This document shows positions 4,334 to 60,346 of a stretch of DNA of 64,000 bases, piece by piece. The position numbers were made by a program, and so were the translations under genes. The DNA comes from Pecten maximus (lineage: Eukaryota): positions 32,426,001-32,490,000 of the forward strand of contig NC_047023.1 of NCBI RefSeq assembly GCF_902652985.1. Reading direction: 5' to 3'. How positions within the stretch are numbered: position 1 is the stretch's first letter; each line of letters starts with the position of its first letter. The notes under the pieces are model-generated. The model saw only the letters and a program-made list of their open reading frames with translations. It was not told the DNA's origin and searched no databases.

Positions 4334-4760
4334 CCTGGTGGTTCCATTATCACCATCCTTAATCTTTTTTTTGTGAATGTGATAAATACAATTTGACCTA
4401 GATTTGTATGTCGGATGTCGTCATGACCAAGATTTGTATGGCGGGTGTCGTCGTGACCTAGATTTGTATGACGGGTGTCGTCGTGACCTAGATTTGTATG
4501 GCGGGTGTCGTCGTGACCTAGATTTGTATGGCGGGTGTCGTCGTGACCTAGATTTGTATGGCAGGTGTCGTCGTGACCTGGATTTGTATGACGGGTGTCG
4601 TTGATGAAATAGAAGACGCTTACCCACGGGGACGCCTGGTCTTGTTCTTCTTGTACCTTTTTAAATGTATCCATACAAATATAAATTATGTTCATAATTC
4701 ACACTGGATTTGGTCGATATAGTGTCAGAGTTACTGTTTCGTTTGCGTTTCGTTTCTCTG
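4334..4760 (+). mobile_element. Copy of a dispersed repeat (probably the 3' region of a Penelope-like element) with an internal 30-bp tandem array (TGACCTAGATTTGTATGGCGGGTGTCGTCG, about 7 copies, 4394-4600)
   Basis: The motif chain TGACCTAGATTTGTATGG...GAAGACGCT...CCTGGTCTT recurs at ~43941, ~57921, ~63622 and inverted at ~23255-23305. The 63.6-kb copy follows a degraded PLE-type RT. Confidence 0.6.
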
Positions 4761-5907
4761 TACTTTGCTTCATTATATTATCACAGTTGGTGGACTGTGA
4801 TTTAAAAAGGAGAAGCAAGGATTTATGAGTCCATGGAATTTTAAGGCATATATTATGTCACACACACCAAAAGTGCATTAGAACTGCTTGATAAAAAAAC
4901 TATACAAAATGAGGCAGCACGCGCTGTATAATAAAGATGGCATTATCTAACACAGTAAACTATCGAATTTGTCAACATGATATAACTCGATGATGACGTG
5001 ATGTAATTGAAAACGGAATAGCAACAGCATAGTTTGTATGGTGAAGATTAACTACATAGACAGGAGGGAAGACTTCATCTTATATCTATTTCTTTAAAAT
5101 AAATTAAAACTTAAAACGAGAATAAAATGTTGAAGTGAATAGTTCTCGTGTGTCCACTGAATGTATTATAAATTGGAATTGCTTCAACTATCGAAATCCT
5201 TAGATGCCGCCTTCATATAGGTTGAGGTTTGTAGACACAAAACTTCAAAAATGTTATGGAGTTATGATTGCTTTTGGGATAGCAATTTATTGTTTCAAAC
5301 TTGTGGGTCAATACAAATGATTCGCTATAAGCTGGATCCTTTATAAAAATTGAATGTCATATACACTTGATACGCTGACATGTTACTGTTAAGTTATTCG
5401 GGATAGGTGGGGAGGATGAGTCGAACATTTCCTGTTGTCGATAAATGTGTATAATTTGATGTCCATTCCTCTTCAGGTCGATTGCACACCAACGTATTAA
5501 GATATCATTGTAAATACAGACGATCTTGTACATGGATGGTGTTAGATGTTAGAGATACTGTCGAAGGCAGGTCCATGGTTCTATTAACTTTTGTTGACTT
5601 TATTTATACACTGATATACACTGACAGTGGATGCCCTAGCTACATGCCAGGTACTCCCTATCGATAAGGCGGGACCTCTCACCACAGACATGGAACACTC
5701 CTGTAACACCCTGTTGAGTGAACACGGTATATCGATGTTATACACTCTAAGTTCTTCCTCAGAGAATATACACGATCTCATATATTAACACGTTTATGAT
5801 ATACAGAAGGTGTATGATCTGGAAATATTTACATCTGATTCAAATACTTTGTAAATGATACAGAAATAAATAGAGTAGATAAAATATGTATAGAAATTCG
5901 TCCTACG

Positions 5908-6512
5908 GTTTCGTCCATTTGAGACTCGCCAGTGATGTAAGGGACATCATACAGCTGTTCGTCCTTTTGAAACTCGCCAGTGATGTAAGTGACATCATAC
6001 AGCTGTTTCGTGATTCTAGCACTAGTCAGTGATGTAAGGGACATCATACAGCTGTTTCGTCCTTTTGAGACTCGCCAGTGATGCTAGGGACATCATACAG
6101 CTGTTTCTTCCTTTTGAGACTCGTCAATGACGTAAGGGACATCATGCAGCTGTTTCGTCTTTGAAAGACTCGTCAGCGATGTAAGTGACATCATACAGCT
6201 GTATCGTCCTTTTGAGACTCGTCAATGATGTAAGGGACATCATGCAGTTGTATCGTCCTTTTGAGACTCGCCAGTGATGTAAATGACATTATACAGCTGT
6301 TTCTTCCTTTTGAGACTCGCTAGTGATGTAAGTGACATCATACAGCTTATTCGTCCTTTTGAGACTCGTCAGTGATGTAAGGGACATTATACAGCTGTTT
6401 CGTCCTTTTAGGACTCGTCAGTGATGTAAGTGACATCATACAGCTGTTTCGTCCTTCTAGCACTTGTCAGTATTGATAGGGACGCAATACAGTTCTTTGT
6501 CCTTCAAGGACT
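5908..6512 (-). ncRNA. Tandem array of about 12 hammerhead ribozyme monomers (49-bp unit)
   Basis: The minus strand of 6391-6447 reads ACAGCUGU-A/UGAUGU-CACUU-ACAUCA-CUGACGA-GUCCU-AAA-AGGAC-GAA-ACAGCUGU. This gives a canonical CUGAnGA/GAAA core, GUA cleavage triplet, 6-bp stem I, 5-bp stem II and palindromic stem III. The unit at 6146-6202 has a compensated stem II (GUCUU/AAGAC). Confidence 0.88.
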
Positions 6513-7293
6513 CAATAATTTGACCGAAAGAAGAGGAAAAGTTGTGAAAATCAAAGAGGAAAATAGAGAATGTCATACATTGATCCAATAACTCAATTAA
6601 TGTCGTAATTTTGCATAATAGATAATTAAAATAGATTAATGAATGACATATTCAGGAAAAGGTCCTAAGGAGATGTGATCAATAGGGATATCTTTCTTTA
6701 TGAAGAAACATACCCTTACAACACACTTGGACGTATTTCACCTTGGTCTTTTTAATGGCCGCCGTATGTGATTAACTTTATATTTTCTAATACTGTCCTT
6801 AATTTTGAGTTAAAATTTGAAACTTGAAAGTTCTTTAATGACTCCCGTTCTGTTTTATTAATGTGAGCACTGTACAGGTTGTGATACTGTTTATCTACCA
6901 CATATATTGCTCTACTTTACATGAAATGATATCTATGAATTTGCACTTTTAAATACATATTCCTAGTGTTAATGATTCAGTTTTAATTGACCATTCCTCG
7001 TGAACTGTCTCCATGGACAACCATTACTTGTAATTAATTGGTGTTATACTGGCAACGCGGTGTGAATCAAATCATATTTTGAAAAGAGTTCGATATGCTT
7101 AATATTTGAATGTCTTGTACGTTGAAAACCACAACTTAGTGCTGTTTGATATGAAATAAGCGGCATGTCAAACTTCGACATTATGGTAAAGATTCTCATA
7201 AATATCATATTGGTTGTGTCATATAACTTCTATCATATTTACTTTACTAACCTGAAGAAAATGTTCCAGAAGTGCCCTGAAGCTGTTTTGGGA

Positions 7294-14057: not shown

Positions 14058-15205
14058 GTTCAAGTTCAAGTTCTTTATTGACTTTGAGTCTTCCGACTCA
14101 TCAGTATCATATACATGTACATACATTGTAATATACAAATTTTACATAACATTGACAACATCAGACAAAACACACAAAAAACATAAATTCGTGCCAGAGA
14201 CAATATACTCGGAGAGCATAACTATGTTAAAGAAGCTCTTTTGACATTTGCCACTTTGATGTATTTGGCCATTTTTTCTAAGTCTTTGGTATTTTGCCCG
14301 TTAAATAATTGTATCAATTTCAACATACTTGGTTTTTTAAAATAGTAACTTTTCAAATATTTCTTACGAATATCAGAATAACATGGGCATTTTAAAATAA
14401 AATGAAATTCATCCTCGACATCATTTAAATTACACACAGAACAAATTCTCAAATGTCGCTGGATATTTTGATAACGACCTTTTTCTACATTTAAATCATG
14501 AGCTGACAATCGAATTTTAGTAATTTCTTTTAAGTACCCTTTCCCTAATGGTTTTCTCAAATAACCCTGAATACCAAATTCATTGTCAAGACATGTATAC
14601 AAAAATCCCTTTGAAGATGTTCTAATTTGTTCTATGCAATCCTGTCTGTTAATATCTAAAAGTCTGTCTTTAATTACAATGGAAGAAATATTGTCAATAT
14701 TTTCTGTTTGCCATATATAGCCTAGGCCTATTCTATATAATTCGTTCTTGATATTTAATACCCATTTATCCTTATGCTCTAACATGTCTTTATAACATGA
14801 TCTTAAAATACAATTATCAGTGTTTATTATTTTTATCCAATATTTAAAAATTCTTAATTTCCTTAATAATGTCAATAGATATCTACCTAGCTCTAAATAA
14901 ACCATAGCATTACAAGTATTTTTCCGTACACCGAGTAATTGTTTACAGAATGAAGTATGTACTTATTCAACATCAGGCGCTTTATGAAAGCCCCATATTT
15001 CTGAACCATAACTTAAAATACTGTTAACATACGTATCAAAAACTGATAGTTGAGTTTCAATATTAAAATAATTTTTACGACATACATTCAAAATTGAAAA
15101 CAAAGCTTTTTTCCCTTGATCTGCTACTTTTTGCTGTGTTTTTCTAAAAGTCCCATTGTAATTTAGCAAAATACCCAGATAATTGAATTCGTTTACAATT
15201 TCCAA
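14058..15205 (-). mobile_element. 5'-truncated RTE-X-like LINE (RT C-terminus plus CCHC region) with one premature stop
   Basis: ORFs 14963-15205 and 14222-14905 share a frame, split by a TAA. Motifs FNYLG, LSYGSEIWG, ELGRY, VEKGRY and CxxC..EDEFHFILKC. AATAAA plus (AACTTG)n tail at 14058-14080. Confidence 0.9.
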
Positions 15206-16580: not shown

Positions 16581-17142
16581 ATGAATAATTTTCGATTTTT
16601 CACTGGTAAATACGTAATAAAGTGGTATATTCAGTTTGTTTCGTTTCGGGGTCAGGCAGCTCATAACTACGGCAATCTGACCTTCAACGCTTTCCCAGAC
16701 AACGATAATCATCATTTCGTACGGTTTTACTGGTAGTAAAATTTGTTCTCCAATGGTCAAGTGTGAGGAAGACTCGACTTTATTCCGAAACCATCGAATG
16801 TATCACATCTAAAAGCACGTGTAATGGTATCACCAAATAGTTTGGGTCTCTAGAGATGACGGTTGATGAAGTCTAGAGACAAATTGTATGGTCACCATCG
16901 TTTTATCTTGTTGTGTGACGTGAAGTTCGACGTCTTAAAACACTCGATGATATGCTCAGCGGTTTCATTGTCGCTAGTGCTGTTCTCTACGTAACCAGAC
17001 ATCACCAAACGTGTGACAGTTCTCAAAACTGCACACTTATATGTTCTATGTGGCAGCATTTATATCTTCTTCTTTTTTAAATGATACATTGTATAGTAAC
17101 TGATCTAAATATCAATTTGATTAACTTGTAAGCTATTGGATA

Positions 17143-17552
17143 GAGTGGAAGATAACAAACAACATCTCAAATAAACTAGATGTCTTCCAGACGAGATGCC
17201 TACGAAGAATCCTCAAAATATTCTGGCCACATACCATCTCCAATTCAGAATTATACAGGACTACAAATACAGCACCGTTGTCTCAGGAAATAAAGAAAAG
17301 GAAATGGCGATGGATAGGACATATATACAGGAAACACCCAGACACCATCACTAGGGTAGCACTGAGATGGACACCATCAGGCAAAAGGAAGAGAGGAAGA
17401 CCAAAAGAAACCTGGAGGCGGTCTGTAGAGAAAGAAATGAAGGAGATAGGGTGGACATGGGGACAAGTACAAAAATGGTCCCAAGACCGACATCACTGGA
17501 GAACTCTGGTAACGGCCTTATGTGCGTCAACGCACGAAGAGGATTAAGTAAG
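17143..17552 (+). mobile_element. 5'-truncated RTE-clade LINE 3' end
   Basis: Translation LDVFQTRCLRRILKIFWP...WRWIGH...ALRWTPSGKRKRGRPKETWRR is a typical RTE C-terminus. (TAAG)n tail; 9-bp TSD TATTGGATA at 17134-17142 and 17553-17561. Confidence 0.93.
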
Positions 17553-27259: not shown

Positions 27260-28860
27260 AAGACTCTTTCATATGTGTATATGTAGGATAGGGACATTCC
27301 ACCCGAGGGGTCACAAAATGTGGTGAAACCCGAGGCTTGCCGAGGGTTTTACCACATTTTGTGATCCCGAGGGTGGAATATCCCTATCCTACATACACAC
27401 ATAATGAAAGAGTCTTTTTCTCTCATATCATTACCGAATTTCTGGCGAAAGTGTCCCTCAGCCATCCATTTTCTTCAATTTTTTAATTTCTTTATTTGAC
27501 GTTTTTACTAAATATACTTGTGATATTCTGAAAGATCATACCCTATTTTTAGCAAACAACGTTTGCACACAAATTTCATTCATTTTGTGGTTAAGTGATG
27601 AACGAATGAACAATTCGCCGATAAAAATTACCGTACCTTGACCGACTTTTACGTGGCCGTGATCAAATTGTCAACATCCGAGAAAAAGAAGTTCTATCAA
27701 CAATACTGAAAGCCAACGCTGAAATGAGTTTCCCAACTTCACATATAATTTGATTTGCACCTCGACATATTTAATCATTTCACAGAACACACTGTACTTT
27801 TAAATGTCAAGTCAATTTTTTTTTTATAAAATACTACGTCACTGCATGACGTCACGACTGTCATTGGAATTCCATTCATAGTTCAATGAGAGTGATGTCG
27901 ATCTCGATCGCCATGACGCGGCGATGTTTCGTGGCTGGTAATTTTAAATTCACTGTGATTTTGGCAACTTCGTGTGTGAACCAGCGAACAGTGACTCTAT
28001 ACGAGTATTCGATCTTTTCTGTGACATAGGCTTATATGTGTTTAACCGGTTGTCTTGATGGAATGACGAAGGTAGGTCAGTCGATAGGCTAACGATGATC
28101 ATATTGAAAGGCTAGGATGGCAGTTAGTTTTCATGGTTACTCTACACAAATATAGACTCTGAGTTACAATTGAAATAAATATTTTTTATATGAACATCGA
28201 GGGGTGTCATTTTTACCGAATGTTCGTTCATTTAAGAGCCAATTCCCAACTTCCAAATACACAGGTTACTGAGTAGGCCTAACAGTTACTGACAGTACCG
28301 TAGAGTAAACAAATTCCAGGGCCCCCTGCTGACGCAAACGGAACCATTTCATAGGTTGTGACGTTTGACATTTTCTTTTTTATATTTTTTTATGTATGGC
28401 TTTTATTTTACTTCCTGTCATTGCCAGGTGATTGTGTGTGTTTACACGTTTTTAATGACAAATGACAAATCTGTCGGGTAGGCAAGTCTGTATTGTACTG
28501 TAACTGTTACAACAGGCCTGTAACGTTAGGCGTAGTCTAACTGTTTGTTACAGTAACGGAGTTATATGTTCGCTCAGATGAAATGTCTAATCGTTTAACC
28601 GTGTAGCCCTATTGATTTACTGCTGATATGATATATATTTATCTAAGAATGTATGTATTTTTATAGTTAAGTCCAACGTTTCAAAACCGACACCGACGAT
28701 AAGGACTGTCGGATGTGAACACAAGCAGACGACGTTGTGAGAGTTGTCCCCCTTGAACGCAGATTAATCCGCGCGCGTGAAATGCTATGTAAGATAGATT
28801 TATCTTACATAGCTATCTTACATGGGCAAACTCTATCCAACATGGCGAGATATGAGAGAA
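27260..28860. mobile_element. ~1.6-kb non-autonomous element with a long terminal hairpin and asymmetric sub-terminal inverted repeats (Crypton-like or Helentron-like)
   Basis: ~157-bp imperfect palindrome at 27260-27416 centred on CCCGAGGCTTGCCGAGGG. TTCTCTCATATC (27418-27429) is inverted to GATATGAGAGAA (28849-28860). Small hairpin at 28784-28813. Confidence 0.6.
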
Positions 28861-29264
28861 TGAAGTGTCTTTCTGTTCACGATTATCGCTGAATAATATG
28901 GCTGCTTCGTGACTCTAAAATATATCAGGCAAGGAACTTTTATTTTCATTATCTAAATGGACTCTATCTGATTATCCTGGGTTATTAAGGTAAAAATGCA
29001 ATTGTTTCATGCTTTAAATGTCAATATCAATCGCAAGTAAAATCCTAATTCCCCTTGGAATTGTGACCAACCATATGAACTGTTTCTGGAGGCGGCAGGG
29101 GAGATAATTTTAACTCTCTCTCATCCTCAGTCAATATATGGTTCTACCAGGAAAGTATAACACCATATTGGCCTGAGAAACGGTCCATTATTGGTAAATA
29201 TCAATCATAAACAGCAATATGATGCCTCCAATAACTAAAGCAGCGCCTCATGTATTTTACAAAT

Positions 29265-30215
29265 AAATATATAGCTGGTTTCTGGTCTTAAACCGTGTAA
29301 CAAAAAGTCTTTTTGAAACCTATTAATACCGATGAAGAAGTATTCGCTATTACGAGCAACAGGAGCTTTCTTCTTTCGTCGCAGTAATACACTCAATGAT
29401 CGCGTCGTTTTGTAATATCAGAATTTATTAATCTTTTTCGTACCGACGATAGGGGACTCATGGGGACCATCAGTTGACCTTAACCAGGTGATGGATTTGG
29501 CTGGATGAAATTATACACAACTTGTAGACGGCTGGCGTATCGAGGTGTCTGTAAGCTGACACTATGTGACATAGCTAGTCTCTGACGTCAGATACTTCGT
29601 ATTGACATAATTTATGAGAGACTCTGATGTATTCTATCGCACGTGAGGTTCCATTGATCTTGTGTTGTTTATGTCTTTGTAAAATATCTCTTTTTTTTTT
29701 GCAAAAAATGTTAATAACAATGATATGCAACACTAAGACATCGCCTCATATTTTTTTTTTTTTTTTTTTTAAATTAATATATAGCTGGCTTCTTGTCTTA
29801 AACCAAGCTTAAGTTCTTTTCGAAACCAGTAATCGCCTATGAAGAAGTTGTCGCCAAATACGATCAGCAGGTGCTTTGTCTTTCCAGTAGCGGCTATTTC
29901 CAATTTGACAGCAATATACCTTTGAATCGCCTCGTTTGATAATATTAGAGTTTATTTGTCGTTTTAACCCCGGCGACAGCAGACGCTAGGGGGCAATCAG
30001 AAGACCTAAACCAGATGATGGATTTGGCTGGATAAAGAGTTATACACAGTCTGTAGACGGTTGGAGCATCGCGATATCTTTATACGCTGACACCATCTGC
30101 CAGATAGTCCCTTGTCTCATGTCAGATACTTTGTAATGATAAAAAACATGATAGAGACGTATTCGAACGCACCTTATTGGAAGCAGCTATTTTGTTCCAC
30201 GGATCTTGTGTTGTT
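29265..30215. repeat. Diverged tandem duplication, ~510-bp period
   Basis: Shared blocks AATATATAGCTGG, ATGAAGAAGT, TGATGGATTTGGCTGGAT, TGTAGACGG, GCTGACAC and GTCAGATACTT occur in both 29265-29670 and 29775-30215. Confidence 0.85.
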
Positions 30216-30942
30216 GACGTCATTGTTTGAAATCTAAATGCTACGATAAGTGTGAATAAACGTTCTGTTTTGCAACGAAATACTGTCGATTTATTGATGT
30301 CCGCGTGCTCATTCAGCGAATAATTTAACATCATAAACGTACAAATGTAGTATTATCCATGTGAGTAAAGCTAATACTATAATTTCACTCCCATTACATT
30401 TCAGTCAATGTTGTCAGAGATACTTTTGCATGTATCATTTGCGGTTAGCATATCATCCTTAAAGAACTACAATGCGTTTTATTTTATTTATTTATTTATT
30501 TTTTTGTATTTGTTTTGTTGTTGTTTTTTCCAATACCGTCTCTATTTTTATCTTAAGCTATTTCTCACAAATAACTGTGTTTAATGACAACTAATCAACA
30601 CACTTAAGATGTGTTTGGGAAATTGGAACTCATTTTAGGCTCTCCGTATCGTCATAAAACATGACAAGATTAAATCATATTGTTATGGTAATTAAGGACA
30701 AATCGTCAAATAAAAACGAGTAAATTTAGGTCATCATTCACTATCCATAAATCTGAATGCTCACATGCACGTAAAGTTCTCTTGAAAACTAATATTGAAA
30801 ATTACGACATTTATTGAAAGTATGGGTCATTTGTTCATCCCCGCTGATATTTTACAATGCGTTTGACAAACATTCACAATCGTTTCAATGAAGCATACGT
30901 TTTTGAAGTTAAGTCATGGTCGACTCCCATGACTATTGTAGG

Positions 30943-31992
30943 TCCTTCACTGATGGGTTGTAGAAGGACGTATTCCTTCACTGATGGGTTGTAGAAGGAC
31001 GTATTCCTTCACTGATGGACTGTAGAAGGACGAATTCTTTCACTGATGGGTTGTAGACGGACGAATTCCTTCACTGATGGGTTGTAGAAGGACGAATTCC
31101 TTCACTGATGAGTTGTAGAAGGACGTATTCCTTCACTGATGGGTTGTAGACGGACGAATTCCTTCACTGATGGGTTGTAGAAGGACGTATTCCTTCACTG
31201 ATGGGTTGTAGAAGGACGAATTCTTTCACTGATGGGTTGTAGAAGGACGTATTCCTTCACTGATGGACTGTAGAAGGACGAATTCTTTCACTGATGGGTT
31301 GTAGACGGACGAATTCCTTCACTGATGGGTCGTAGACGGACCCAATTCCTTCACTGATGAGTTGTAGAAGGACGTATTCCTTTATTGATGGGTTGTAGAC
31401 GGACGTATTTCTTTATTGATGGTTGCAGACGGACGAATTCCTTTATTGATGGGTTGTAGACGGACGAATTCCTTTATTGATGGGTTGTAGACGGACAAAG
31501 TCCTTTATTGATGGGTTGTAGACGGACGAATTCCTTCTCTGATGGGCCGTAGACGGACGAATTCCTTCTCTGATGGGTCGTAGACGGGCGAATTCCTTCT
31601 CTGATGGGTCGTAGACGGACGAACTCCTTCTCTGATGGGTCGTAGACGGACGAATTCCTTCTCTGATGGGTTGTAGACGGACGAATTACTTCACTGATGG
31701 GTCGTAGACGGACGAATTCCTTCACTGTGGGTTGTAGAAGGACGAATAAATTCACTTATGGGTTTCAATAAGACGAATGCCTTCAATGATGGATTGTAGA
31801 CGGACGTATTTCTTTATTGATGGGTTGTAGACGGACGAATTCCTTCACTGATGGGTTGTAGACGGACGAATTCCTTCTCTGATGGGTCGTAGACGGACGA
31901 ATTCCTTCTCTGATGGGTCATAGACGGACGAATTCCTTCACTGATGGGTTGTAGAAGGACGAATTCCTTCACTGATGGGTTCTAGAAAGACG
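30943..31992 (+). repeat. Minisatellite, 31-bp unit (TTCCTTCACTGATGGGTTGTAGAAGGACGAA), about 34 copies, derived from a hammerhead ribozyme core plus stem II
   Basis: Period 30961 to 30992. The unit aligns to CACTGACGAGTCCTAGAAGGACGAA of the ribozyme arrays, and the 3' flank (31971-32040) aligns with the 3' flank of the 37.8-kb array (38076-38150). Confidence 0.9.
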
Positions 31993-32813
31993 ACTCAGCC
32001 TTATGGTGTAGTTAGGTTTATTTCGGCTACTGTATCTTACTTATTATTTTGTTGTGAACGGTGATGATATCCTGTATGCCTTGTAAACAATAATTTGATA
32101 AATATACATTTTGTGCACCATAACTACTGTATGCAGTATTTTATTTTGAATCATTTCCTGTTAGGTCAATATATATATATATATATGTCACCATGTCACC
32201 TGACATTGAGGTGATAATCTAAACTATTAATTTATACTGACAACGGAATATTTGTTAAATGGTACTGGGTGGAGATATTAACGGAATAAGCATAACTCCC
32301 ATTAATTTTGGAAGCTTACGAGAAGTAAGCACCCGTAATAGATCGGCTATAGAAAGCCTCTCACGACATTAGATATTCATTCATAAACATGTGTATTGTT
32401 CAGCGTGACACCATGCAGGGTACCCGAATCTAGATTAATATCTATGATATAAACTGCCTAGGTGACAAATGGTTGGTGTGAGAAAATATACTGATCCATA
32501 GCTGAATTTATTTGGTCATGCACGTCATGTTTTATCTGGAACATTAAGCCACGTCGCTTTATCTATAGGTGTTGTTATTGAGATCACGTACTAAAGTCTC
32601 TGATACTGATTGGACAACCACATTGTGGTGAAACACTCTCATCTGTCAACAGAATCATGACAACCATTTTCTAAATGACAATTGTCTCATATCATGCGTT
32701 CCTTCAACATAGAGAAAATAATGATTTAAAAAATAAATACATAAAAAATAGATGCTGCATCAGTAATTCGATTCTATCTCTCATTCTATCTGGTATTAAC
32801 TGGTATTATATAT

Positions 32814-37345: not shown

Positions 37346-37796
37346 CTTAGCCTGCGACGAATATGACATAGATCGGATTTAATATTAAAAAAAACTCTGA
37401 TCAAGGTTCGCACGTAACAGGATAATACAAAGACATACAAGATATGTACACATTCCAATATTAATTAAATAACATTGCATCATACAGCTGTCACTCGTTA
37501 GTGATGATAAGGGTCTGGAATGTTTATACCTTTGTGGCGACGAAGGACACTCAAATTTAGTTGGAAAGCGTGTTAAAATCTGATGGAGAGGTACAATTTC
37601 CCTACATAACTTTATATGTTTCGTAATCTTTAATAATTCAAAACAATATCAAGTACGTGTGTTCTGTACGTGTTATGTAGCTTCTAAAACGCTGTATGGT
37701 AGGACTTCCCATACAAACATTCAAAGAAAGATTTCGAAGTTTAGTTTTTGTCGCCACCTATGATCAACACTTTATGCTTTTATCAAACTGTCGCAC

Positions 37797-38113
37797 AGAG
37801 GGACGAAACATGCATGATGTCCCTAGGATCATTGACGAGCCCTAGAAGGGCGAAACACCTTTATGATGTCTTTAGAATAACTGACGAGTCCTAGAAGGAT
37901 GAAACACATGTATGATGTTCCTAACATCATTGACGAGAACTAGAACGACGAGACAGCTGTATGGTGCCTCTTACATTTCTGACGAGTCCTAGAAGGTCGA
38001 AACACATGTATGTTGTCCATAGCATCATTGGCGAGCCCTAGAAGGACGAAAACCTGTATGATATCGCTAATATCTCTGGTGGGTCCTAGAACGACGAAAC
38101 ACCCGTATGGTGC
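37797..38113 (+). ncRNA. Second, more diverged hammerhead-monomer array (about 6.5 units of 48-49 bp)
   Basis: Units read (C/T)TGACGA-GTCCT-AGA-AGGAC-GAAAC-ACATGTA-TGATG...CATCA. GAAAC-like motifs fall at ~37805, 37852, 37901, 37950, 37999, 38048 and 38096. One unit has a compensatory stem II (GCCCT/AGGGC, ~37839-37851). Confidence 0.78.
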
Positions 38114-38579
38114 AGTTTAATTCACTTAGGCTCCACTGTATCTAACTCTTAATTTGCTTGGTAATGTGCACGTATCAGGTGTGCCTTTTGTATAATCCTT
38201 CTGGTGGACTGATCAATGCCAAAATCTGGATAGTAGGCTGCAAGAGATCAATATCTCAATCAATTTCATTATTTTCAATACTTGTTTTCAAAAGTTCTCT
38301 ATGAAACGTGTATATTCAGAACCGCGCCAATATTCAAATGAATTAAAATGTGACAGACAGGTCACAATAACTCTCGAGGACTCTGTGGAAAACCATCATC
38401 AATCCTTGATTACAAAAATCACAGTAAAAACCATTTTAGACATTTTTCAAATTCATGTATTCACCCTGAGAGTCTTTTCCCATGGTCATTTACAAAAATG
38501 TTTAATCTACCGTGAATATCGTAAATAATATGCCTTTATACCCTATAATGCAATCCCACGAAACATTTTAGGTTAAGGA

Positions 38580-43904: not shown

Positions 43905-44290
43905 TCCGTCGTCACCACCGTAGGTCTCAATTTGAAAATGTGACCTAGATTTGTATGGCGGGTGTCGTCGTGACCTAGATTTGTACGGCGTGTGTCGTCG
44001 TGAACTAGATTTGTATGGCGGGTATCGTCGTGACCTAGATTTGTATGGCGGGTGTCGTCATGACCTAGATTTGTATGGCGGGTGTCGTCGTGACCTAGAT
44101 TTGCATGGCGGGTGTTGTTGAAGAAGCAAAAGACGTTTATCCTTCCGAAAACATATTTCCTTATTCTCCTTTTTGGACATATACAAATGCATATGCATAT
44201 TAATAGTGTTTTTGTCCTGGTTTTATCGACGTTTAATTGGAATTTTGATTTCACTTTAATGTCAGTGTTTTTCTACGACTCATCAATGTG
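43905..44290 (+). mobile_element. PLE-associated 3' repeat copy with a 30-bp tandem array (about 6 units, 43941-44118)
   Basis: Same TGACCTAGATTTGTATGGCGGGTGTCGTCG unit as 4394-4600, followed by GAAGCAAAAGACGTTTATCCTTCCG. Confidence 0.65.
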
Positions 44291-45379
44291 CTATGTAGAG
44301 GAAGGAAACAAAATTAAAACCTGACTCCATTAGTAAATCAATTTGATAAACAAATAATTTCAAAGGTATATATCGAATATGTGTGTTATTCTGAACTGGT
44401 GCTCTTTTATATGATGTGGCATTAATGATAACGGTAAACATTATGGAATAACAAATCCACCAGCAGCTTACCACCTACCGCTCTAAAAAGATTCTTAAAA
44501 AAGAAACATCAGACAGTTTTTATGTTGAAACCACTAGAGTAACATATTAGTAATGGTCGCCGTAATGTTATACTATCTAATGACTAGGGCGTTAGGGCAC
44601 AACTTCTAATCACGAGGACAGTAGCAGTAGAATCTCACATTTCTATCAGTGGCTCACTGATTCAGTGTTGGACTGGCAATAATTACTGGACAGGTACGAA
44701 AAGGTCGATGAGTTGTAAAACTTCCAAGCATGACATAGCAAACTGCGTTTTGTGTTGATCAGACACAGGCGTGATATCTAACGATTAATTAGTAGTATTA
44801 AGTTTGTGTATCGTAAATTAGTGGATTATCTATAGGTTACCTGATACTTCCAGTAAAACACTCTCTCACTTCCATATCGTCTTTCTTTAGAACTTAATAC
44901 TTCTGAATAGCCTCCTCCTTACGTCAACAATATGATGGAGGTCGTAATATTATCCCTTCCTGCGCTCTCAATCTACAGAAACGTGTTGTTACCAAACTGT
45001 GATTGTTTTGTATTATTACATACCGCGTGAATTCGGTTACCGTATGTGCCTATGCTGGTAGGGCATAAGAATTTTACCTTCTATCTCCATTTCGTGATTT
45101 CTAAGAGACGGTTGAACTTTGGAGTATTTATACATATACGGTTTATTTCTAATGTCCTAGTTTCTTTGAATATTATGTAAAACATTTATGTATATAAATA
45201 TGAGTCCGCCCATTCCCGTATTCACCAAAGCCACATATACTCGGGATTAATGAGAGTTCATCGTCTTCATTCCTTACTTCCTTAGCGGATCAGTTTTCAT
45301 GGCAAATGACTGATATAGATAGCATCTTAGTTCTCCAAAAACACATGCCTATATAACACGTAGTAAACGAATTAAATAG

Positions 45380-58080: not shown

Positions 58081-59695
58081 TTTTCATTGTCATAATCGTA
58101 ATTAAGTAGATATTGACGATAGTTTTCATTGTCATAATCGTAATTAGGTAGATATTGACAATGACAATGACAATATTTTATTCTCATAAACATATAAAGT
58201 GTAGAGAATTATATACATACAAAATTTGTACAGGACATATGATATAATACATCGATACATTTGTTAAGCAAGAGATTATCTTAAATATTGTTGAGTCGTA
58301 TACTTATTTCTTTAATTAATTTCACAAGTGATTTCAATTCATCGTCTACTACAAAATTAAAAAGTGTATTAAATTTGAATGTACTTGGTCTTTCATAATA
58401 GTATCTAGATATATATTTTTTTCTGTTTAATGCTATTTGATGATCGCTGCAATTAAATAGATAATGGAATTCGTCTCCTATTTCATTCAGGTTACACAGA
58501 CTACAGATTCTATTTTCTCTTGGGATGTTATTCCATCTTCCGTATTCGATTGGTAATTTAATGTTACAAGTTCGAAATTTACAATAAGAATTAGCTAGCT
58601 TAGGAGGGAGGTCAAGTAGATATTTTTCTAAACTTAAATCATGTTTATAAATTCTGTAATTGGTCCCTTTCGGAGAATTGAAAACGTCATTTTTCCAATT
58701 ACATATGAACAAATTTCTTAGGGTATGAAAAACAGTATTTTTTAAGCAGCGTATACTAGTAAATTCATGGTTTTCAAAAACATCTAATAAATTACATTCT
58801 TCAAAAATGTTTTTAATATAGTTAGACCATTGAGCATTATAATGTCTTAAAATTTTGAAAAATTTGTTGCTCAATTTATTATGAGTTGAGACCATCATTT
58901 TGGCCCAAAATCCAATCATACGAACTTTTATATTTATACTTAATGGAAACCTTCCCAATTCTCCATATATCATAAAGTTTGGTGTAGATGTTTTTAATCT
59001 AAGGATATGTTTACAGAATTTCAAATGTAGACGTTCTAAGAGCTTGGTGTCACAAAACCCCCAAACCTCACAGCCATATAGTATAATCGGTTTGATTGCT
59101 TTATCAAAAATATCCATTTTACAATCGATGGACAGATTATGATTTCTGCATTTTGAAATAGCGCCATACATGGCCCTAAGGCCTTTTTCATGTAATTGTT
59201 TGATATTCAAATGTGTAAAACCATTTCTAGTGAAACAATTCCCGAGATATTTAAAATTTTTCACAATTTCTAAATTATTGCCATCATAGGTGAACTGTAT
59301 ATTTCGTGACACCGTTCCTCTCCCAAAAACCATTATCTTAGTCTTGTCAATGTTAACTTTAAGATGCCACAATTTTGAGTAGGTGTGAAATACGTTAAGT
59401 TGTGTTTGTAAATCTTCTACTGACTCTGCAAGTAGAATGGTATCATCGGCATACAACATTATATACAACTTGAGATAGTTTTCGTTGTCATAATCGTAAT
59501 GAGGTAGATATTGACGATAGTTTTCATTGTCATAATCGTAATGAGGTAGATATTGACGATAATTTTTATTGTCATAATCGTAATGAGGTAGATATTGACG
59601 ATAGTTTTCATTGTCATAATCGTAATGAGGTAGATATTGACGATAGTTTTCATTGTCATAATCGTAATTAGGTAGACATTGACGACAGTTTTCTG
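58081..59695. repeat. 42-bp minisatellite (GATAGTTTTCATTGTCATAATCGTAATGAGGTAGATATTGAC) split by a LINE insertion
   Basis: About 2 units at 58081-58159 and about 5 units at 59474-59695; the register resumes exactly across the insertion. Confidence 0.92.
58160..59473 (-). mobile_element. Young 5'-truncated RTE-X-like LINE with an uninterrupted RT C-half plus CCHC ORF
   Basis: LYADD, FKYLG, LYGCEVWG, GELGRFPL, IEYGRW and CSLC..IGDEFHYLFNC with no stops down to 58281. AATAAA plus (TTGTCA)n tail at 58160-58185. Confidence 0.93.
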
Positions 59696-60346
59696 CCAAG
59701 TCATTAGTATCGTACCAATAATAATTACCTACCGATTATCAACATATCAATCGCATTTCTCGCGTGACATTCAAAGTGTGAAGAAGTATCTTAGATCCTG
59801 TGCGTTGAGCAGCCAAGAACTTCAATAAAATGTGGTTTAAATCATGTGTATTGCTTGATAGTCTTTGTAATGAAACACCAATTACGTTACATTGCGCCAA
59901 TCATTCACTGTATCAATCAATGTCTTATTAAAACATGTGCATTACTGACTATAGATCTAGGTTAAACAGTTTTTAATGGTCGATTACAATTATTCCTTAC
60001 ACTAAATGGCATAGTTTCAGTTAATCAATACGTTCTCGCCGATTTCAATTCTTAAATTCCTTCGCCCGGCACTGTGTCAAGGTCATGGCCAATGCCATCA
60101 CTGTAACGGCCGTAATGATTTTCATTGTTCTACAATAAATCATCATCCCGATTATTGGACAGTTTATAAAGCTGACATTGGCCAAGGTCATTTCGTTGAT
60201 ATCTGTCGGTATTACCAAATCATCTGTGAAACAAATACCCTTGTATGTATATAATAAATTATGATATCCGAGTCGGAACTGTTAAGTGGGTAAATAGGAA
60301 TCGGGAACAGATTGAAAGTTTGGTATTGTATACATGGTAGTGTACA

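Follow-up and report, generated by a model that had tools for sequence, protein, structure and literature searches.

How does a piece of a ribozyme become a minisatellite, and does it keep any activity? The question is raised by a 31-bp tandem repeat in a 64,000-base stretch of Pecten maximus DNA (contig NC_047023.1, positions 32,426,001 to 32,490,000; here called the window). A sequence-only reading had proposed that a dead sub-fragment of a hammerhead expanded about 34-fold inside a larger element, and this is borne out by comparison with shuffled sequences, by a profile of the host element, and by division of the array into its units. We consider it quite probable, taken as a whole, that this is an array of hammerhead fragments in an old host copy, likely made by DNA-level tandem duplication of a damaged hammerhead, likely enlarged by slippage or unequal exchange, and predicted to be inert.

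TRF called the array at 30943-31993 (period 31, 33.9 copies, 89% matches), and splitting it by hand gave 34 units on the forward strand, from 30943 to 31995. Each unit corresponds to a shortened stem I 5' arm, the CUGANGA box, stem II, and a remnant of the GAAA box (hammerhead positions are numbered as in the cited papers). The stem I arm keeps 2 nt and has lost 5, A9 of the CUGANGA box has become G, stem II is damaged, and GAAA is replaced by GAAT or GTAT. When one 31-bp unit was aligned with two 49-bp whole-hammerhead units, 1 of 5,000 shuffles reached its score. Helix III, the cleavage site, and helix I are absent from the repeated unit, as had been claimed. However, they are not altogether missing from the locus, because stem III, the triplet position, and the stem I 3' strand survive as a single damaged copy 3' of the last unit (31996-32008). 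In the 918-Mb genome G000, the 31-bp unit is confined to this one locus (8 matches in a DNA search and 16 with a 26-nt pattern), and so it does not occur elsewhere without a hammerhead flank.

GAAA is present in none of the 34 units and CUGANGA in two, both with GTAT. These two, unit 6 (31098-31128) and unit 14 (31347-31377), contain the only CTGATGA motifs in the array (31105 and 31354), and they had been taken to retain the ancestral box. However, they are identical at 31 of 31 positions and are spaced 8 units apart, and lag 8 is the only lag with several identical unit pairs (4 of 20, versus at most 1 at each of the other lags from 1 to 17). This indicates one mutation followed by one duplication of an 8-unit block. 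Furthermore, both the first and the last units of the array have G at the A9 position. Therefore, the CTGATGA of units 6 and 14 is likely a later change instead of a retained feature.

The array is not an assembly artefact, because contigs from two DNA runs of two further studies (X4 and X5) join it to its 3' flank, and an X5 contig also joins the 5' flank to it. The X4 contigs do not cover the 5' flank, a gap that proves nothing. Two other runs weigh neither way: X6, which is RNA by guess only, gave two short contigs of array units with no flank, and X9 gave one 203-nt contig upstream. Among the runs listed as containing the array, none was given as RNA. Short-read contigs collapse the array, and summed contig depth was left out as a measure of copy number.

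The flanks place the array in its host. A 3' flank shared with the hammerhead array at 37.8 kb had been reported, and this is borne out. The alignment of 31960-32100 with 38065-38210 scored 65 (shuffle mean, 16.4), which was reached by 0 of 2,000 dinucleotide shuffles. The flank alone (from 31994) scored 41 against the end of the 37.8-kb array (0 of 2,000), and the part beyond stem I scored 29 (10 of 2,000). However, pairwise comparison did not extend this to the array at 5.9 kb (209 of 2,000). For the 5' flank, the 5.9-kb array gave a score of 38 (0 of 2,000), and pairwise comparison with the 37.8-kb array gave a score reached by 119 of 2,000 shuffles.

We also built a host profile, with a 389-bp internal period, from 63 loci outside the window. 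Before counting, we removed hits of the window to itself, loci that overlapped within a single array, and duplicates (L012, L027, L028, L082, L083, L094, and L108). The profile matched both sides of the array in register. The upstream match (30751-30970, E 2e-23) covers profile positions 99-282, with the host 5' part itself, positions 99 to about 250, at 30751-30942 (+). The downstream match (31969-32098, E 1e-17) covers positions 259-391, and the host 3' part (31996-32098, +) runs to the common 3' end of the family. Because the profile came from other loci and matches on both sides, the array lies inside a single copy of a hammerhead-bearing element that is old and dispersed, repeats with a period of about 389 bp, and carries one type I hammerhead. 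The proposal that the arrays sit inside a larger element is thus upheld. The locus had also been called a third copy of this element. It is a copy of the hammerhead host, but by the profile the window carries six such copies, not three. A second, at 37739-38201 (+), contains a 49-bp whole-hammerhead array at 37797-38109 (6.4 copies), and a third, at 5858-6623 (-), contains one at 5908-6471 (11.5 copies). Around the 37.8-kb array, three host copies alternate in orientation within less than 1 kb (37418-37666 [-], 37739-38201 [+], and 38215-38382 [-]). Another decayed copy is at 44268-44475 (-).

It is extremely unlikely that the array was inserted already formed, through rolling-circle reverse transcription of a 31-nt RNA circle, or that it resembles a hammerhead by chance. 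Retrozymes are thought to spread via RNA circles (PMC7229834), which would favor such an insertion. However, the 31-bp unit has no cleavage site with which to make its own monomer, it is found at a single locus, and the host is in register on both sides. Chance resemblance is excluded by the shuffles. These readings are already largely refuted.

The host family is old. The 5' flank matches 18 other places in the genome, many with a single hammerhead about 140-170 bp downstream, and over 65 rows the sampled copies agree with the column majority at about 80% of positions (GC, 0.36). A DNA search with the 3' flank matched the window only, the family being too diverged for such a search, and just 3 matches came from a pattern for the junction between hammerhead and 3' flank. 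A 21-position interval about 90 nt past the cleavage site contains 30 of 80 host 3' ends, and 84 5' starts are spread; these counts come from loci selected by search and describe a pattern without testing it. Some copies are longer than a monomer, as in L107, where two decayed hammerhead positions are about 380 bp apart. The loci retrieved included no young dimer of full length. The host copies in the window contain no ORF of 120 amino acids or more.

The common 3' end and variable 5' ends suggest a non-autonomous, retrozyme-like retroelement. Non-LTR retrozymes of animals include the 350-390 bp repeats of Mytilus galloprovincialis described in PMC7229834, and like these the host has a period in this range (389 bp), one type I hammerhead, a GC content of about 36%, no long ORF, and some copies larger than a monomer. 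It also agrees with the retrozyme criteria of a monomer within about 150-450 bp, a GC content below 50%, a noncoding sequence, and a type I hammerhead in the repeat. Unlike the Mytilus retrozymes as that paper presents them, the sampled host copies are old and mostly monomers or partial, they share a 3' end about 90 nt past the cleavage site, and their tandem growth is concentrated on the 49-bp hammerhead. Long reverse transcriptase (RT) plus GIY-YIG ORFs exist in the genome (7 of 7 matched GIY-YIG and 6 of 7 RVT_1 at E<=0.001). However, none of 50 GIY-YIG loci, taken from 150 scored of 300 candidates, matched the host profile. The decayed monomer in L107, one old copy, folded no better than shuffled sequence (z, +0.67). 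Because no Penelope partner was found among the 50 loci and the old monomer folds no better than shuffles, the host is best called retrozyme-like, resembling non-LTR retrozymes in its sequence features, and not a proven member. No target-site duplication was found near both host ends; the only candidate, an 8-mer 25 and 63 bp outside the profile ends, was rejected. As a separate observation, a minimal hammerhead-like motif of another sequence family (L179:3476 [+]; G000:C9:25.65 Mb) lies about 1.3 kb from a 781-amino-acid RT plus GIY-YIG ORF on the opposite strand.

How might the array have formed within this host? A solo hammerhead, the founder, would first have lost 5 nt of the stem I arm and changed A15.1 to T. 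The two changes mark the outer ends of the array, which would place this damage before duplication. The 5-nt loss is seen at the outer edge of the first unit and again at every internal junction. The last unit has the T at 15.1 on its outer edge and continues into the single damaged stem III, triplet position, and stem I strand. The mid-unit changes (A9 and stem II) are not datable to before duplication. The 31 nt from the stem I arm to position 15.1 would then have been directly duplicated in tandem within the damaged solo hammerhead. Growth from this first duplication would have occurred in place by slippage or unequal exchange, together with block duplication. The duplication junction is without microhomology, the ends of the duplicated segment sharing no letters. 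The first unit lies between the arms of a 7-bp inverted repeat (-6.1 kcal/mol for the DNA, a value without a shuffle control), which may have helped the duplication, as a candidate trigger only.

Searches of the genome revealed related arrays. A 32-nt pattern for the intact core gave 528 exact matches (0 for the reversed control), and the loci among the matches listed were mostly 49-bp arrays. Of two patterns for shortened junctions, the first matched 7 times in 6 loci and the second 46 times in 14 loci. The 14 loci comprised seven fragment arrays, five with single short units beside 49-bp units, and two that were unrelated; L115 and L116 were set aside as chance, having no array and no host match. 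With one more array from the first pattern, there are at least eight other hammerhead-fragment arrays, with periods of 29-52 bp and eight different junctions: 29 bp in 44 copies (C9:8.57 Mb), 32 bp in at least 69 (C12:41.44 Mb), 34 bp in 9.7 together with 31 bp in 4.4 (C8:27.49 Mb), 35 bp in 12 (C14:4.41 Mb), 37 bp in at least 48 (C7:2.99 Mb), 39 bp in 12 (C16:15.08 Mb), 45 bp in at least 211 (C12:17.43 Mb), and 52 bp in 4.7 (C16:7.43 Mb). Eight is a lower bound, because the patterns were exact and the array in the window would itself not match them. With at least nine such events in the genome, the window array becomes less rare. The 45-bp array (L196; G000:C12:17426500-17436000) exceeds 9 kb, consists of the first core box and stem II with a long foreign insert, and is preceded by a weak match to the host profile (18.8 bits).

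These sister arrays bear on another possible origin, with the same host and the same inertness, in which the 31-bp unit was born inside a 49-bp whole-hammerhead array by deletions totaling 18 nt and then took over. Such a route is real elsewhere, because the 35-bp and 39-bp arrays adjoin intact 49-bp units as mixed arrays and carry the 49-bp junction. In addition, 49- or 46-bp arrays occur in 7 of the 31 host copies that cover the hammerhead, and single shortened units lie beside 49-bp units at 5 of the 14 loci. The 31-bp unit also starts at about the same place as the 49-bp unit. However, not one 49-bp unit is left in the 31-bp array, the 5-nt loss at the junctions would also have to be present in its first unit, and the single-copy continuation of the terminal unit shares the T at 15.1. 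We regard this route as unlikely for the window array and prefer duplication within a damaged solo hammerhead.

When we searched with a pattern for a possible subfamily carrying the 5-nt loss, there were 19 matches in two loci, the window array and the 32-bp array on C12, with no solo copy; divergence of the family limits the reach of this search. The 32-bp array (L205:1416 onward and L201; C12:41.44 Mb) has the same 5-nt loss from the stem I arm, which is rare among 62 aligned rows. Either recurrent deletion or shared ancestry could account for it.

Is the array catalytic? Changes at A15.1 reduce hammerhead activity more than 100-fold, and changes at A9 or A13 reduce it 10- to 100-fold, according to PMC4075628. 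The mean pairing probability of the native stem II was 0.009 (30 units). No Rfam hammerhead matched the 31-bp array at E<=10, and no Rfam match in the whole window reached the gathering threshold. Even the host copy at 37739-38201 reached only 22.9 bits with Hammerhead_1, under the cut-off of 34. The 49-bp arrays in the window are largely decayed, with both boxes and UH in 2 of about 7 units of one array and in 1 of about 12 of the other. The Hammerhead_1 cut-off was passed by 49-bp units in two of five related loci (L048 and L061; 7 units among the matches listed). The 31-bp array is predicted to be catalytically inert, and selection for catalysis does not appear to act on it. Matches to SNORD59 on units 6 and 14 were dismissed as chance (E 6.7; 18.9 bits versus 45).

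An inert array could still be kept if its RNA acted in trans, as the enzyme strand of a hammerhead or as a decoy for retrozyme RNA. The core-like boxes in every unit, the CUGANGA in 2 of the 34, and the presence of the array in several animals could be read this way. However, the two halves of the core never occur together in one unit, stem II is predicted not to form, and a pattern for the substrate of the unit arms had no match on either strand within the window. Furthermore, variation among units tracks block duplications and not conservation of the core. Trans action has no support, and we consider it very unlikely.

Metazoan type I hammerheads with a short helix III cleave as tandem dimers (PMC4209133), and like them the 49-bp unit has a short helix III and a palindromic loop. 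The 31-bp unit is unlike the hammerheads of that paper, having no helix III, cleavage site, or helix I to offer. In a fold of three 49-bp units, helix III is paired between neighbors, and transcription would be predicted to release a 49-nt RNA. Across the genome, 49-bp arrays such as those at L048, L061, and L110 consist purely of whole hammerheads, in up to 30 copies, and their units match the Rfam models of both type I and type III. They also resemble the short retrozyme families of a recent preprint (bioRxiv 10.64898/2026.07.22.740005), in which the consensus can be as short as 51 bp and unequal crossover amplifies units locally in tandem. The same preprint derives retrozymes from the terminal sequence of Penelope elements by local amplification. 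Molluscs are absent from the groups named in its main text. As described there, the pipeline retains a repeat only if two consecutive units each contain a complete hammerhead, and so fragment arrays such as the 31-bp one fall outside it.

Is the hammerhead module especially prone to this? As a control, we used a pattern from a non-hammerhead segment, matched to the hammerhead pattern in per-copy conservation (5 of 33 versus 5 of 42). It gave 3 matches (1 for the reversed control), and none of the 3 was an array. We also took 40 host loci in which most of the best match fell outside the hammerhead; 31 of them cover it, including the 7 with 49- or 46-bp arrays, and one of the 40 had an array from another part of the host. 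This array (L016:498-1438; G000:C6:19.65 Mb; 38 bp in 24.8 copies) is at the common 3' end. We tentatively suggest, with rather less than even confidence, that the hammerhead module is a genome-wide minisatellite factory. A tandem pair of 49-bp units, which short-helix-III hammerheads require for cleavage as dimers, would have spread with the element and seeded many whole-ribozyme arrays, and the same 50 bp would have given rise to at least nine independent dead-fragment arrays (29-52 bp), far more often than the rest of the element. This suggestion has limits: there was one control segment, and the 49-bp arrays have a single junction in common, may go back to one event, and inflate the number of hammerhead targets. 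In addition, this genome makes arrays from many kinds of DNA.

The window itself contains 18 arrays that occupy 13,322 of its 64,000 bases, and array expansion is therefore common here. One 30-bp unit occurs in two of its arrays 39 kb apart (4394-4601 and 43940-44115), which suggests a further mobile host that carries an array inside it. An old direct duplication of about 400 bp lies at 29255-29642 and 29765-30172 (70% identity, E 5e-41), and a near-palindrome of 157 bp lies at 27260-27416. Judged by eye from their motifs, LINE reverse transcriptase-like ORF fragments are at 14222-14962 (-), 17125-17547 (+), and 58281-59735 (-).

The birth of minisatellites inside transposable elements (Alu, B1, and LTR; the Haber-Louis model) is well described in PMC6947457. 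As in the cases presented there, a short piece of one dispersed copy expanded in place at this locus, with the element on both sides. Unlike those cases, the source was the core of a ribozyme, and the 31-bp unit is flanked by a 7-bp inverted repeat instead of the 5-10 bp direct repeats of the Haber-Louis model. We found no report of hammerhead-fragment minisatellites in the literature that we searched, with subscription journals mostly outside the search. The window array is thus a clear but rather unexceptional example of a tandem repeat likely born from mobile DNA. It probably has no activity and alters little, and it is useful because the birth of a minisatellite can be read from it. Beyond this locus, there is a recurring pattern in which hammerhead fragments become tandem repeats, one that is missed by retrozyme pipelines that demand complete ribozymes. 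If the hotspot holds, at least nine births from one 50-bp, hairpin-rich module form a natural series with which to set hairpins against tandem pairs as triggers. If the suggestion is true, the structure of a ribozyme would shape the tandem-repeat landscape of an animal genome.
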